Position numbers and translations under genes: made by a program. The notes below the pieces were generated by a model. It made no database searches, had not been told where the DNA came from, and saw only the letters and a list, made by a program, of their open reading frames with translations. Of a DNA stretch of 64,000 nt, positions 28,195 to 34,995 are shown piece after piece. The DNA lies in the NCBI GenBank assembly GCA_950096895.1, contig CATNBF010000003.1:3801-67800 (forward strand). Reading direction: 5' to 3'. Position 1 is the first letter of the stretch. Each line of letters opens with the position of its first letter. Source of the stretch: an uncultured bacterium (GTDB lineage Bacteria; Pseudomonadota; Alphaproteobacteria; Rs-D84).

Positions 28195-28953
28195 CTATTT
28201 ATTTTTCCTGATAAAATCTGCCACACAGCACCGATCCCAATTAATGCCTTGTTTAACCATACGGGCCGGTACGCCTGCAATAACAATATTGGGGGCATCA
28301 AACTGATGCGTGACCACACTGCGCGCGGCAACCACCGAATTATCCGGAATTACCGCCCCCTTTGAAATCAAGACATCTGTGGCGACCCAAACGTGATTGC
28401 CAATACGCACATCACAGTTGTGGTTCAAAACCTGGCCTGATTGACTATCAACAATTGTATGGTAATCCCCATTACGAATAGTAATGTTATAGGCAAACAT
28501 GCAATCTTCGCCGATAACAACATCCCCACCGCCACCGTGCGCCAATTCAATATGAACCACACCGGTCGAAGAAAAATTTTTATGAATAATCACATTTACC
28601 GGACAATCACACCCAAATTCCCCACGAAATATATTTAACAAGGCCCCACATGCATGTACTGGGTAAATCGTTATATTCGTATTACTTGAAACATTTATGC
28701 GCAAGCCTAAGCCAATCGGTTCATGTAAATAAACGTTATTATTTGTGCCCTTGAATAAAATTGTACATCCTGGAATTTTGGCCACTTCGTACCGGGTGCC
28801 ATCGGGCGCAATGCGAAATATATGATTCCCAGATGATACCGCACCCCCAGACGACGTAACCTGGTCACCGCCTCTAAACCTATGCCGGATACAATGACGC
28901 ATCGCCCGCGATGGTATAAAACAACAAACAATTCTTAATATAAATCCCGACAT
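28195..28953 (-). CDS. hexapeptide-repeat (left-handed beta-helix) acetyltransferase
   Basis: Tandem hexapeptide repeats (IGNHVWVATDVLISKGAVIPDNSVVAARSVV). Start moved to ATG 28953 (MSGFIL...) because the track start 28998 is embedded in a terminator-like hairpin. Confidence 0.6.
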   Translation of the reverse strand: MSGFILRIVCCFIPSRAMRHCIRHRFRGGDQVTSSGGAVSSGNHIFRIAPDGTRYEVAKIPGCTILFKGTNNNVYLHEPIGLGLRINVSSNTNITIYPVHACGALLNIFRGEFGCDCPVNVIIHKNFSSTGVVHIELAHGGGGDVVIGEDCMFAYNITIRNGDYHTIVDSQSGQVLNHNCDVRIGNHVWVATDVLISKGAVIPDNSVVAARSVVTHQFDAPNIVIAGVPARMVKQGINWDRCCVADFIRKNK

Positions 28954-28974
28954 TCCTGGTACCTCATATCCATA

Positions 28975-29013
28975 AAACAAAACCACCAAGACAATCATGG
29001 TGGTTGGGGTTTG
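28975..29013 (-). terminator. hairpin AACCACCA-n9-TGGTGGTT with a T-rich run on the minus strand (terminator-like)
   Basis: Perfect 8-bp stem. On the minus strand it is followed by TTTTGTTTTAT. Confidence 0.35.
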
Positions 29014-29396
29014 AGAACAATTACAGGAATTGCACGGTTTATTATTTTATGTATTAACCGTACCCCAACCAAATGGTTGGGATTTATCATCATCTCTGAC
29101 GCCTGTACGGGGTTCTCACGCCCCAATGCGACAACACATCGCATCAAATGAAATTTTATATAAAAAAATTAAAAGAGCAATAAAAAACGTGCCCTTTGTG
29201 GGCAATAATTTTGCTTTATCCCCATAAAAAAGTCCTGTGCCATGCCACGACTAACCATTGTCTGGCCCATGTAACACGGTTGCCGGTTGATACGCATTTG
29301 TATTAAAAAATTGACGCATGGGTGGGCCCGCGCGCTCCACGCCTATATCCCCGGCCGCTAATGCTGCCCCCAACCGCCCATCTGAATTCTGCACAC

Positions 29397-29505
29397 TAAA
29401 AAAATCCACCCAATTGGGTGGATAATAAAAAAAAAGAACATTGCAGTTATAAGTGTTTTACGTCACCTATCTGACCCCTGCTCTGATGAAATCTGAACAC
29501 CCATA
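29397..29505. repeat. about 100-bp direct repeat, copy A, containing the 20-bp perfect palindrome ATCCACCCAATTGGGTGGAT (29404-29423)
   Basis: Near-identical copy at 29853-29950: AAAAATCCACCCAATTGGGTGGATAATAA...GAACATTGCAGTTATAAGTGTTTTACGTCACCTATCTGA. Confidence 0.8.
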
Positions 29506-29536
29506 AAAAATCCCGCCCATCGGCGAGATTTTTTAT
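29505..29536. terminator. rho-independent terminator (AAAAAATCCCGCC-catc-GGCGAGATTTTTTAT)
   Basis: A-tract, 7/8-bp stem, T-tract. Lies 3' of the small minus ORF 29533-29733. Confidence 0.5.
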
Positions 29537-29733
29537 CGACCTTCATTGTGTTTCTGCTGTTTTAAGTGAGCTCTCAATTCTTTGATTCTCGCCCACATGA
29601 ACATAATCCGTTCATCACGTTCACCCAACGCATTATTGTAATTATCTATAATTTTGTGACCTGCCTTAACGATCCCAAACCCACATATAAACGCCCAGAA
29701 TAAGTACCCAGGCAAAATCCCAATTGCTGCCAT
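29533..29733 (-). CDS. hypothetical small membrane protein (66 aa) flanked by the direct repeats
   Basis: One TM helix (IGILPGYLFWAFICGFGIV) followed by a charged tail. Own terminator. Sits between the two 100-bp repeat copies. Confidence 0.3.
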   Translation of the reverse strand: MAAIGILPGYLFWAFICGFGIVKAGHKIIDNYNNALGERDERIMFMWARIKELRAHLKQQKHNEGR

Positions 29734-29852
29734 GTAAATCGAAATCCGCAGCTGGGCTTATCATATCCTTCTGGAGCATTTTTTTGGGGAATGTTAGCAG
29801 TGCCCCCATTTGAACTCCAAAATATAACACATGCGGGTATAACGTCGGCAGA

Positions 29853-29950
29853 ATAAAAATCCACCCAATTGGGTGGATAATAATAAGAACATTGCAGTTA
29901 TAAGTGTTTTACGTCACCTATCTGAACCCTGGCACTCTGAACACAAAAAA
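29853..29950. repeat. about 100-bp direct repeat, copy B (palindrome at 29859-29878)
   Basis: See copy A. About 456 bp apart in the same orientation. Confidence 0.8.
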
Positions 29951-29973
29951 TGCCCCGTTGGGGCATTTTTTCT
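29946..29973. terminator. bidirectional terminator (AAAAAATGCCCC-gtt-GGGGCATTTTTTC) immediately 3' of rpsK
   Basis: Perfect 7-bp stem flanked by an A-tract and a T-tract. rpsK stop at 29974. Confidence 0.6.
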
Positions 29974-30357
29974 TTACACGCGACGTACTTTCTTTGGGCG
30001 GCATCCATTGTGCGGAATACGTGTCGTATCCGTAATAGATTGCACGATCAACCCTGCGTTTGATAAACCACGAACCGCAGATTCCCGACCCTGGCCGATA
30101 CCACGCATCAGAACGTCTACTGTCTTCATACCCATTTCTGCGACTTTCTTGCCCACAGAATCTGCAACAACAGTTGCGGCGTACGGTGTCGATTTTTTTG
30201 CACCCTTAAAATTATTCGCCCCGGCGGTCGCCCATGTTAAAACCGCACCAGATTGATCTGTGATTGTAATACGTGTGTTATTGTTTGTCGCAACCACATG
30301 GGCAATCCCATGAGATACTTTTTTAACGACTTTCTTTTTTGCTTTTGTAACTGCCAT
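29974..30357 (-). CDS. rpsK: 30S ribosomal protein S11
   Basis: MAVTKAKKKVVKK...GIAHVVATNNNTRITITD...GLNSAGLIVQSITDTTRIPHNGCRP is the S11 signature. Confidence 0.93.
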   Translation of the reverse strand: MAVTKAKKKVVKKVSHGIAHVVATNNNTRITITDQSGAVLTWATAGANNFKGAKKSTPYAATVVADSVGKKVAEMGMKTVDVLMRGIGQGRESAVRGLSNAGLIVQSITDTTRIPHNGCRPKKVRRV

Positions 30358-30896: not shown

Positions 30897-31005
30897 CTTT
30901 TGTTTTCCTTTTTTATTAATCTTGCCGTCGCCTATTTTACACGGAATACGACAAAAGTCAATTTTTAGTTTACCACAACATTTTCATGTTGCCGGGAACG
31001 CAGAA

Positions 31006-32325
31006 TTACCCGCGGAAACGTCCCTTTTTGTGCGCCGTCTTGATAACGCCGCTGTATTGCTTGGCCACCAGATAAGATTGCACCTGGTTCATGGTATCCA
31101 AGACAACCCCTGCGACAATCAATACGCTGGTTCCGCCGATAACCAACGGCATCCCCATATGCGTGTTCAGGATGATCGGTAACACACAGACCACAATCAG
31201 GTACGCAACCCCAATCGCCGTCGTACGTGATACCACCCCGTCCAAGTAATGAACAGTCTGTTCACCCGGACGGACACCCGGAATATACCCCCCAGCATTT
31301 TTCAAATTATTGCTGGTTTCTTCAGAATTGAATATAACCGCGGTCTGGAAATACGCAAAGAACGCGATTAATAAAGTATACAAGGCCAAATATGTCCATG
31401 TCCCATATGTAAAGAACGACATAATGTTTTGGACAACCAAACTTTCGCTCTGGACAAAGCGTTGCACAAATGCTGGTAACATCATGATACTGGCCGCGAA
31501 AACCGGTCCCATAACCCCAGACATGTTCACCTTGATCGGCAAATAGGACGCATTGGTGTTCATCACACCGTTGGCCATAACTTGACGCGGATACAGAATT
31601 TGAATCCGACGTTGTGCCTGTTCAAAGAACGCAATCAAGGCCACAATACCAACCACAAACGCTGCAATCAAGGCAATCATTGCCGGTGACATCTGTCCCA
31701 CCGACCCCAGCGAGATAACCTTGGCCAGCCCGCCTGGGATTTCTGCGACAATTCCTGCAAAAATCAACAGCGATGCGCCCTGGCCGATACCACGTGCGGT
31801 AATTTGTTCTGCCAACCACATAACAAATACAGTTCCACCAACCAACGCCACGATGGCCGATAATTCAAATGCAAAGCCGGGATTAACCACCGCCGGGATT
31901 CCATTAACCGGTGCCATCATTTCCAGACCACGCACCACGGCCCATCCCTGGACAATCGCCAAGAATACCGCCAGATAACGTGTATACTGATTGATCTTAA
32001 CGCGTCCCGATTCCCCTTCTTTGCGCAACTCGCCCAGCGACTTGCTGGTCGCGGTCAACAACTGTAACACGATAGAAGCCGAGATATACGGGAAAATATT
32101 CAACGCCAAAACCGACATACGTGACAGCGATCCGCCAGAAAACATGTTGAACATGTCCATCATGCCACTGCCTTCGCCGGTAAACAAATGCAAAACCGCC
32201 GACGCATTAACACCCGGCAACGGAATAAATGAACCAATGCGATAGACAATCAACGCCCCCAATGTAAACATAATGCGCCGTTGCAAATCACTCATCCCTG
32301 TAAAGATTTTCTTAATGAAATTCAT
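31006..32325 (-). CDS. secY: preprotein translocase subunit SecY
   Basis: Ten TM segments and the RGIGQGASLLIFAGIVA motif. ATG 32325 (MNFIKK, AGAGAGA RBS) preferred over the track's GTG 32352. Confidence 0.92.
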   Translation of the reverse strand: MNFIKKIFTGMSDLQRRIMFTLGALIVYRIGSFIPLPGVNASAVLHLFTGEGSGMMDMFNMFSGGSLSRMSVLALNIFPYISASIVLQLLTATSKSLGELRKEGESGRVKINQYTRYLAVFLAIVQGWAVVRGLEMMAPVNGIPAVVNPGFAFELSAIVALVGGTVFVMWLAEQITARGIGQGASLLIFAGIVAEIPGGLAKVISLGSVGQMSPAMIALIAAFVVGIVALIAFFEQAQRRIQILYPRQVMANGVMNTNASYLPIKVNMSGVMGPVFAASIMMLPAFVQRFVQSESLVVQNIMSFFTYGTWTYLALYTLLIAFFAYFQTAVIFNSEETSNNLKNAGGYIPGVRPGEQTVHYLDGVVSRTTAIGVAYLIVVCVLPIILNTHMGMPLVIGGTSVLIVAGVVLDTMNQVQSYLVAKQYSGVIKTAHKKGRFRG

Positions 32326-32329
32326 CTGC

Positions 32330-32620
32330 TTATCTCTCTCTGGACTTGGCACAATCTAAGGCCCTGGCTAAAAACACATGTTTTTTTGCCATTTTCATCG
32401 GCTGTTGTGCTTTTTTATTCAAGGCATTGATATATGCCATCACCAACAGATTAAAGACCCGTGCTTGATATTCGGCCGGCAAATATCCCGGCAAGTCATC
32501 AATCATTGCCACGGCCAAGTCCGGTCGATCTGCCATCACAATGACATCTGCGGTACCAGAATGCATCACATGATTCATATGTGCCACCTGGGAACGAATA
32601 TAATCACGTGTCAAACTCAT
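32330..32620 (-). CDS. hypothetical small protein (96 aa), tandem paralog A, inserted between rplO and secY
   Basis: Shares LPGYLPAEYQARVFNLLVMAYINALNKKAQQ and HVFLARALDCAK with paralog B (LPDYIPEHYQMQMQRIWILTALNIIKQESKE and HRVLEANLNACR). No signal peptide. Confidence 0.45.
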   Translation of the reverse strand: MSLTRDYIRSQVAHMNHVMHSGTADVIVMADRPDLAVAMIDDLPGYLPAEYQARVFNLLVMAYINALNKKAQQPMKMAKKHVFLARALDCAKSRER

Positions 32621-32621
32621 C

Positions 32622-32924
32622 TTATTTTGCCTTGATCGATTTATTAACCCGGCATGCGTTCAAATTCGCTTCCAAGACACGATGCCATTGACGCAATGAA
32701 TGAGATTCTTTACTTTCTTGCTTAATTATATTTAATGCAGTCAGTATCCAAATTCGTTGCATCTGCATCTGATAATGTTCGGGGATATAGTCTGGTAACA
32801 TCATTTTTTCCAATGTTACCTGACCATCCAAAATCTTACATTTTGTTTCATAGGACACATACCATGCATTCCCCCACAGGGCACGCATATAATTTGCCAA
32901 GGAAATCCCCCGTAATATCGTCAT
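32622..32924 (-). CDS. hypothetical small protein (100 aa), tandem paralog B
   Basis: See paralog A. 1-nt spacing between B stop and A start. 12-nt spacing from the rplO stop. Confidence 0.45.
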   Translation of the reverse strand: MTILRGISLANYMRALWGNAWYVSYETKCKILDGQVTLEKMMLPDYIPEHYQMQMQRIWILTALNIIKQESKESHSLRQWHRVLEANLNACRVNKSIKAK

Positions 32925-32936
32925 TATTTTGCCTTA

Positions 32937-33395
32937 TTATTTTGCCTTGATCGAACCACCCGCTTTCACAACAGCTGCTTCGGCAGCCTTGGACCATTTA
33001 TCCGCCACAATTTCAACTTTGGATTTAATTTCACCCTTGGCCAAAACTTTCAAGCCCGACATCCGACGGTTAATGATTTTAGCATTCAATAATGTATCAA
33101 TCGTGATCGGCGATTTCGCATCAATTTTGCCAGACGCAATAAACTTTTCAATATCGCCCAAATTGATGGTTGCATAGTCTTTGGCAAACGGATTATTGAA
33201 ACCAAATTTCGGGAAACGACGTAAAATTGGCATCTGTCCCCCTTGGAACGTCGCCTGCTTGCGGGAACCGCTGCGCGCCTTTTGCCCTTTGTGACCACGG
33301 CCAGATGTTTTACCCATGCCAGATCCCATACCACGCCCCACGCGTTTAACATTGCTGCGTGCGCCCAAATTATCCATTAATGCATTCAGTTTCAT
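32937..33395 (-). CDS. rplO: 50S ribosomal protein L15
   Basis: MKLNALMDNLGARSNVKRVGRGMGSGMGKTSGRGHKGQKARSG canonical L15. Confidence 0.93.
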   Translation of the reverse strand: MKLNALMDNLGARSNVKRVGRGMGSGMGKTSGRGHKGQKARSGSRKQATFQGGQMPILRRFPKFGFNNPFAKDYATINLGDIEKFIASGKIDAKSPITIDTLLNAKIINRRMSGLKVLAKGEIKSKVEIVADKWSKAAEAAVVKAGGSIKAK

Positions 33396-34773: not shown

Positions 34774-34995
34774 ATTCCCGTAACAGCGGGAATGACCTTG
34801 TTAAATCTTATTTCTGACGATCTTGGATGTTTTTGTTGCGGTGTTCACCCATTTCTTTCAAATTCTTTTTGAATTTTGAATTCCACAAAGATGCAACACC
34901 CCATCCCACCGCGATGCCCAGCATCATAGCAGCCAAAACATCCGGCAGAACTTTAACAAAAACATTATTTTCCAAGACCATCAGACCTGTCCTAA

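Follow-up and report, generated by a model that had tools for sequence, protein, structure and literature searches.

A variable slot for fast-evolving small genes between rplO and secY in the spc operon of uncultured gut Alphaproteobacteria

We analysed two small open reading frames (ORFs), ORF A and ORF B, that lie between rplO and secY in a 64-kb stretch of contig CATNBF010000003.1 from an uncultured alphaproteobacterium (hereafter the window) and belong to a family of small genes that we call X. The rplO-secY pair is among the most conserved gene adjacencies of bacteria and archaea. In the window all four genes are on the minus strand: rplO (32937-33395) encodes the 152-aa protein L15, with Pfam Ribosomal_L27A matched on an identical gene, ORF A (32622-32924) encodes 100 aa and ORF B (32330-32620) 96 aa, both from an ATG, and secY (31006-32325) encodes 439 aa, beginning 4 nt past the ORF B stop. 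The longest secY ORF opens at a GTG at 32352; the ATG at 32325 was taken as the start because the resulting N-terminus, MNFIKK..., aligns with the N-termini of all homologues. Two minus-strand ORFs of 100 and 96 aa at these positions, with gaps of 12 nt between the rplO stop and A, 1 nt between A and B and 4 nt between B and secY, had been reported in a preliminary description of this DNA and were confirmed by the ORF listing. The final codons of rplO (...AAG GCA AAA TAA) supply an AAGG ribosome-binding site for the following gene; AAGG stands 7-9 nt upstream of A and B, the same pattern as at most other genes of the operon, and secY is preceded by AGAGAGAGA, located inside the end of ORF B. 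No terminator-like site was found between rplO and secY, and an Rfam scan of the A/B region gave no match. Positions, gaps and ribosome-binding sites thus bear out the description of A and B as genes embedded in the operon. The A-B locus recurs, identical or nearly so, in six further assemblies, including GCA_949032065.1 and GCA_948511215.1, and both ORFs are intact in seven independent assemblies.

The mutual paralogy first proposed from shared motifs was confirmed by BLASTP of A against B (27.3 bits, E = 8e-6, residues 43-92 in both). Two of these motifs stand at the same position in both proteins (LP.Y[LI]P..YQ at 43, H.[FV]L..[AN]L.[CA] at 81); the middle one fits only if one residue of slack is allowed. 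Against the profile of the X family, which includes both, A scores 103.3 bits and B 82.7 bits, and in length, motifs, profile match and rplO-secY position both qualify as members. Single-sequence searches with A and B returned near-identical copies only. The closest sampled relative, L007, has one ORF at the same place, and a profile built from A, B and this ORF recovered further members. An exhaustive HMMER search of 1.84 billion representatives gave 20 matches, two of them spurious (a long repetitive protein, and a protein of 1,414 aa in which no stretch was matched), and a DNA pattern on the rplO tail recovered four loci in metagenome data.

The X proteins are 88-102 aa long and carry the motifs P-x-x-[IV]-P-x-K-Y-[HQR] and [KR]-H-x-x-L. 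Strictly invariant residues number zero across the family, which argues against X being an enzyme. There are two deep allele classes, type 1 and type 2; B falls in the type-1b group, and A is a divergent, type-2-like member. Type-1 members have a conserved C-terminus, GNVRES, overlapping the secY ribosome-binding site; it is also found in one type-2 member and is absent from A, B and most type-2 members. Database annotation of X members reads 'hypothetical protein'. When A, B and the L007 orthologue were searched against Pfam, PHROGs, NCBIfam and PADLOC, no match had E < 0.05, in agreement with the earlier remark that neither ORF has a recognisable domain. No Pfam family was matched by more than one of 26 family members, a PDB sequence-profile search returned solely a designed helical bundle (E = 0.003), X relatives were not found in viral contigs, and the family profile found no other X copy in the window. 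To judge from these searches, X is an orphan, clade-restricted and uncharacterised family.

Every one of the 13 distinct members whose context was examined (L007, L087-L091 and L095-L103, plus the short contigs L092 and L093) lies directly 3' of rplO, with secY next wherever the contig extends. Counted by locus, X follows rplO in 17/17 and secY comes after it in 15/17; in the exceptions, the short contigs L092 and L093, the following ORF is unlike SecY. This ORF (MNMLSCMDNGWGFRHYIRR...; L092 1503-1645, L093 817-959), which is not a SecY N-terminus, did not match the X profile and was therefore not counted as a second copy. The two assemblies are independent and both break 143 nt into it, and the common break point suggests a repeat or strain-variable region.

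All hosts of X members are gut Alphaproteobacteria related to Candidatus Enterousia. The lineage assignment is based on L15, which in the window is 80-89% identical to that of gut metagenome-assembled genomes; these are listed as uncultured Alphaproteobacteria, as Rickettsiales or as Candidatus Enterousia, and two of them bear the name Enterousia. Enterousia is a genus of the uncultured order Rs-D84, whose genomes are mostly <1 Mb (PMC12306168).

The protein sequence of X is under purifying selection. The ratio of nonsynonymous to synonymous substitution rates (dN/dS) of X orthologues was 0.13-0.46. For single-copy orthologues it was 0.13-0.40, with a proportion of nonsynonymous differences (pN) below that of synonymous differences (pS; Fisher p 7e-4 to 2e-11), and for B against its L092 orthologue it was 0.17 (Fisher p = 2.5e-10). 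The comparison of A with type-2 members is saturated and still gave pN < pS (p = 0.01-0.025). Since dN/dS is well under 1 and pN is below pS, we regard the X protein sequence as constrained. Spacer DNA with chance ORFs is ruled out by the profile matches, the seven intact assemblies and this purifying selection. At the same time X evolves very fast, its amino-acid change being about 25 times that of neighbouring rplO or secY. In the comparison of the window with L092, X has a dN of 0.27 and rplO one of 0.011; in that of the window with L100, identity is 96% for SecY and 31% for X.

AlphaFold2 with the family alignment predicted five helices for B (predicted local distance difference test score (pLDDT) 77.7, predicted template modelling score (pTM) 0.68) and the same layout, with four helices, for A (pLDDT 75.1, pTM 0.63). 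Averaged over 19 residues, Kyte-Doolittle hydropathy peaks at 0.38 in A and at 0.98 in B, with no transmembrane segment, which upholds the earlier statement that neither has a signal peptide; the peak is <=1.5, again without a transmembrane segment, in 26/26 members, and their isoelectric points (pI) are 8.4-10.5. X is hence predicted to be a soluble basic protein of four to five helices. Foldseek searches of both models against PDB, and of the B model against BFVD, returned no hit with E <= 0.001 and none with a probability > 0.18. At the RNA level no structure common to all X genes was found (RNAalifold energy 0 across the family), and their best local hairpins are no stronger than the secY background. 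ORF A contains an inverted repeat (32787-32827, minus strand; 15-nt arms, 13/15 complementary, 11-nt loop) that is not conserved across the family, the family-wide RNAalifold giving no common structure. Type-1 X genes have a predicted 10-bp long-range helix pairing codons 6-10 (RYAQQ) with codons 37-41 (VVRII), the prediction being based on the five sequences available (L007 4477-4583 and equivalents in L087, L088, L089 and L095). By eye several changes in it keep pairing (G-U to G-C or A-U, C-G to U-G). This helix is not present in A or B.

The rplO-secY slot is polymorphic among relatives: it contains a hairpin spacer alone, an X of type 1 or of type 2, two X units fused into one, or an unrelated ORF. 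A single X copy is present in L007, L087-L090, L098 and L100-L102. L091 encodes a 202-aa fusion of two divergent X units, and the slot of L094 holds a Lys/Glu-rich 164-aa ORF (413-907) with an internal repeat (AVWDEAH...) for which hhalign detected no relation to the X family. X is absent from seven related genomes (L008-L014), in which a spacer of only 56-65 nt stands in its place; this answers the question of rplO-secY spacing in relatives raised by the preliminary description. The five spacers that were folded form strong hairpins (10-13 bp stems, -16 to -26 kcal/mol, z -3.6 to -4.9) that differ in sequence and are alike in position and strength (e.g. L008 4460-4519), and in L011 and L014 similar inverted repeats can be made out in the spacer by eye. 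No U-tract follows the hairpin in these spacers, and secY has little if any ribosome-binding site ahead of it. The hairpin is possibly a processing, stabilising or attenuating element. The end of L15 differs accordingly between the two kinds of locus, being N-K or N-N in 7/7 X-less loci and A-K or A-E in every X-bearing one. In nearly all X-bearing loci the L15 end codons AAG GCN create AAGG; L100 has AAAGCG and its own 12-nt spacer. No residue separating X-bearing from X-less genomes was found in the seven flanking proteins, in local alignments that trimmed the rplO tail, to which the one difference of this kind is confined.

The state of the slot does not follow the phylogeny of its flanks. 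In host trees built from seven flanking genes (3.7 kb), X-less loci were monophyletic in 0-1/200 bootstraps and type-2 hosts in 0/200, and the clade of the window, L092 and L100 was recovered in 200/200; the outgroup-rooted tree has long outgroup branches and very short internal branches. The sister genomes L088 (type 1) and L101 (type 2) have flanks that are mostly 80-100% identical per 60-nt window, whereas the X body is 40-48% identical; the last ~33 nt of X are identical. The difference between these two sequences is a clear allele replacement. Because sister genomes hold different X types between near-identical flanks, we conclude that X alleles are swapped when the conserved genes on either side recombine. 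A further mosaic was found in L006 (Logan SRR22378388, contig 1-2368), whose sequence is that of the window between the 3' part of rplO and about nt 295 of secY, except for six substitutions in A and B (five of them nonsynonymous, including W59G in A) and a missing 13-nt repeat. The 535 nt of flanks carry no difference. Beyond about nt 295 of secY, L006 is 84.7% identical to the window. This pattern is due either to a recent exchange between species in the region of the slot or to a chimeric assembly.

How the window came to hold two X genes is indicated by the junction between them. The final 18 nt of rplO (TCGATCAAGGCAAAATAA at 32937-32954, encoding SIKAK and the stop) recur exactly, on the same strand, as the final 18 nt of ORF A (32622-32639), against a chance expectation of ~2e-5 in 1.6 kb. 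The repeat gives A its C-terminus and stop and puts AAGG 9 nt before the B start; it marks a recombination junction. The silent sites of A and B are saturated (dS ~1.8) while the 18-mer is 100% identical, hence the joining of A and B must be much younger than their split. A separate 13-nt tandem duplication (AAGGCAAAATAAT twice, 32923-32948, minus strand) lies across the rplO stop and accounts for the 12-nt gap that precedes A. L006 lacks this duplication, and there the rplO stop and the A start overlap (TAATG).

The preliminary description called A and B a duplicated pair. In the sense of a local, recent tandem duplication in situ, after which the upstream copy diverged very fast, we consider this unlikely. 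The 18-nt direct repeat at the boundaries of units of 302-315 nt does resemble a duplication junction, and a direct repeat at unit ends is a mark of in-paralogues; it is equally expected from the integration of a foreign allele. The motifs of A and B align at identical positions, and A and B alone in the family have YQ where other members have YH or YR, together with a common N-terminal SL...Y.R pattern. In-paralogues should, however, be each other's closest relatives, and A and B are not. The best BLASTP matches of A are the type-2 members P0027 (44 bits), P0028 (38), P0024 (35) and P0029 (32), with B fifth at 27 bits, and A is near the bottom of the list for B, whose best match is P0015 (61% identity). 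Neighbour-joining bootstraps placed A with type 2 in 130/200 replicates, A with B in 0/200 and B with P0015 in 195/200. With type 2, A has in common a short deletion before the [IML]P motif, a Trp in helix 4 and an S/T-L-x-Q-x-H pattern. A recent duplication is also at odds with the saturated dS between two genes joined by a perfect 18-mer. Finally, B is orthologous to the first gene after rplO in L092/L093 (61-62%), the lineage whose L15 is most like that of the window (97%), and to the gene that L100 has in single copy (31%). In L092/L093 the B orthologue follows rplO directly, through TAA-G-ATGAGT, the same arrangement as at the A-to-B junction of the window, and no A-type gene lies between rplO and the B orthologue in this closest relative.

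Taken together, A and B are probably protein-coding X genes in a polymorphic, exchanged slot, where they form a tandem of a type-2 and a type-1 allele; an accessory role is a more tentative suggestion. An incoming type-2 allele would have integrated beside the resident type-1 allele and not replaced it, through one crossover, in the rplO tail, with a circular fragment or through an unequal crossover, and the integration would have preserved an AAGG ribosome-binding site ahead of both A and B. A, B and secY would be transcribed together with the spc operon and, across the gaps of 12, 1 and 4 nt, translated in relay by ribosomes finishing the upstream gene. Such a relay would chain SecY synthesis to the translation of X. 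In X-less relatives the hairpin and weak ribosome-binding site would occupy the place of the relay ORF.

Several points weigh against this interpretation. The placement of A with type 2 is moderately supported (130/200, from ~30% similarity over ~55 aa), and the YQ found in A and B alone could mean co-adaptation or an older link between both copies. The 'host' tree is built from the genes flanking the slot, which may themselves recombine, and the L006 mosaic may be an assembly chimera. As to the accessory role, the patchy presence of X argues against an essential function on the ribosome or translocon, and patchiness together with allele swapping among close relatives has weakened the ideas of a ribosome- or SecY-associated factor put forward in the preliminary description; along with the fast change they leave room for a conflict-related function or a largely relay role. 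Fold and profile searches of X were without result. What we can say of function is drawn from context and composition, and these tentatively point to X as a dispensable cytosolic accessory factor that may act at the ribosome or at the side of SecY facing the cytosol, as opposed to a core component. That gene position can foretell ribosome association has a precedent in DUF4295 and bL38, described below.

Involvement of X in biological conflict is also unlikely, in our view. X could be an immunity factor, an anti-toxin decoy or a protector of the ribosome or SecY against a phage or competitor toxin, with diversifying or balancing selection keeping the allele classes. The scatter of two deep allele classes and of presence and absence over the tree, the allele replacement between sister genomes and the roughly 25-fold faster amino-acid change are what this idea expects, as is the comparison of the window with L006, in which 5/6 differences in A and B are nonsynonymous. 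Nonetheless dN/dS is <1 in all long-term comparisons, there is no PADLOC, Pfam or PHROG match, no viral relative and no toxin-like neighbour, and neutral-like fast drift with recombination through conserved flanks gives the same pattern without selection for diversity.

That X is a lineage-specific core ribosomal protein, in the manner of bL38 or bS22 and stoichiometric with L15, is distinctly improbable. A small basic protein encoded in the spc operon and translationally coupled to rplO would fit, and there is a precedent. The location of DUF4295 behind the L28 and L33 genes led to the prediction that it is ribosome-associated (bioRxiv 10.1101/494179), and bL38 of Flavobacterium, which has the same gene position, was found on the ribosome (PMC11851116); from this common position we infer that bL38 and DUF4295 are the same protein. 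X is nevertheless absent from seven related genomes interleaved with X-bearing ones, it varies in copy number from 0 to 2 with types swapped where a core protein should be uniformly single-copy, it is 31% identical where SecY is 96%, and its pI is mostly <10.

A similarly low probability attaches to the view that the ORFs are a mere translated relay or spacer that carries ribosomes from rplO to secY, the protein itself being functionless. Gaps that measure -4 to +20 nt on either side of X in nearly every locus, the hairpin spacer and poor ribosome-binding site before secY in X-less relatives, and the great plasticity of the X sequence would suit such a spacer. It does not account for a dN/dS of 0.13-0.46, significantly <1, for the conserved length (88-102 aa) and motifs (P..IP.KYH, KH..L), or for the consistent AlphaFold2 helical fold of A and B.

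Most improbable of all are an arrest peptide of the SecM/MifM/VemP kind, regulating secY in response to secretion, suggested by ORFs directly upstream of a Sec gene and by the conserved type-1 GNVRES but lacking a signal or transmembrane segment, a C-terminal motif in A, B and most type-2 members and, with a 4-nt gap, any room for an intergenic stem-loop, and the toxin-antitoxin-like pair of the preliminary description, which two adjacent small genes may bring to mind and which we set aside because most relatives examined are single-copy, hence there is no obligate pair, and because no toxin-antitoxin or defence model in PADLOC or Pfam was matched.

Between rplF and rplR the window has a 57-aa ORF (34808-34981, minus strand) with a hydrophobic, transmembrane-like segment (maximum Kyte-Doolittle 2.08), and a counterpart roughly 80% identical by eye is present in L100 (538-711). 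Five other genomes have apparently unrelated ORFs of 49-54 aa there (...VEY..DYLSG.K.K...; L007 2579-, L009 2563-, L088 572-736, L089 501-665 and L098 596-757), and six others only a spacer of 29-52 nt. The rplF-rplR junction is a second variable slot. Downstream of the X slot, secY in the window is directly followed by rpsM, with no adk or rpmJ in between (30897-31005), and upstream of rpsM lies a match to Rfam Alpha_RBS (RF00140; 30864-30959, minus strand; 33 bits, E = 8e-5, below the gathering score of 38), plausibly the S4-binding leader of the alpha operon. After rpsK (29974-30357, minus strand) there is no rpoA or rplQ; a 66-aa hydrophobic ORF (29533-29733) and a 267-aa ORF follow, the region of rpsK and these ORFs being 28195-30357 on the minus strand. 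The L001 gene at the position of the 267-aa ORF has no Pfam match on record. Judged against the usual gene order, this arrangement is unusual for Alphaproteobacteria.

To return to A and B as X genes in an exchanged slot, the unusual point is a variable, exchangeable small-gene slot within the spc operon: a highly conserved junction hosts a selected, very fast-evolving and clade-specific gene whose presence, type and copy number vary among relatives. The locus also shows a possible rewiring of translational coupling, with a relay ORF in place of a hairpin spacer. If X does act on the ribosome or SecY, it would be a new translation or export accessory factor of an uncultured lineage from the gut; otherwise the slot still offers a clean natural example of small genes settling in, and being exchanged through, the gaps of an essential and highly expressed operon. 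More speculatively, and with rather little confidence, the spc-operon junctions (rplO-secY, rplF-rplR) of Enterousia-related gut Alphaproteobacteria could be cradles and exchange points for new small proteins, with X a dispensable modulator of the ribosome or SecY whose two deep allele classes are traded between species and were both captured in the window.

Compared with known systems, X is closest in setting to bL38 and other lineage-specific ribosomal proteins, which are likewise small, clade-restricted, without wider homologues and fixed in place in a ribosomal-protein operon. Unlike X, bL38 has been conserved throughout an entire class, and it is critical for growth. X is missing from some close relatives and differs in copy number among them, evolves ~25x faster than its neighbours and is twice as large. 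In SecM-secA, MifM-yidC2 and VemP-secDF2 the upstream ORF has an export signal at its N-terminus and an arrest motif at its C-terminus, and a stem-loop hides the ribosome-binding site of the downstream gene. These Sec-monitoring ORFs are, like X, clade-specific, fast-evolving small ORFs just upstream of an export gene and expected to influence that downstream gene, but X has no export signal, no family-wide C-terminal motif and, in the 4-nt gap to secY, no stem-loop. Type II toxin-antitoxin systems resemble A and B in having two adjacent ORFs of ~100 aa with a 1-nt gap; A and B differ in being mutually homologous, single-copy in most of the relatives examined and without a match to any toxin, antitoxin or DNA-binding domain. 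Pherotype, bacteriocin and immunity loci hold idiomorph-like alleles for signalling or toxin-immunity with recognisable partner genes. The X slot shares with them deeply divergent, non-alignable alleles at a single chromosomal site between conserved flanking genes and incongruence with the flanking phylogeny, and it differs from them in encoding one small, predicted cytosolic protein within the spc operon, with no partner.

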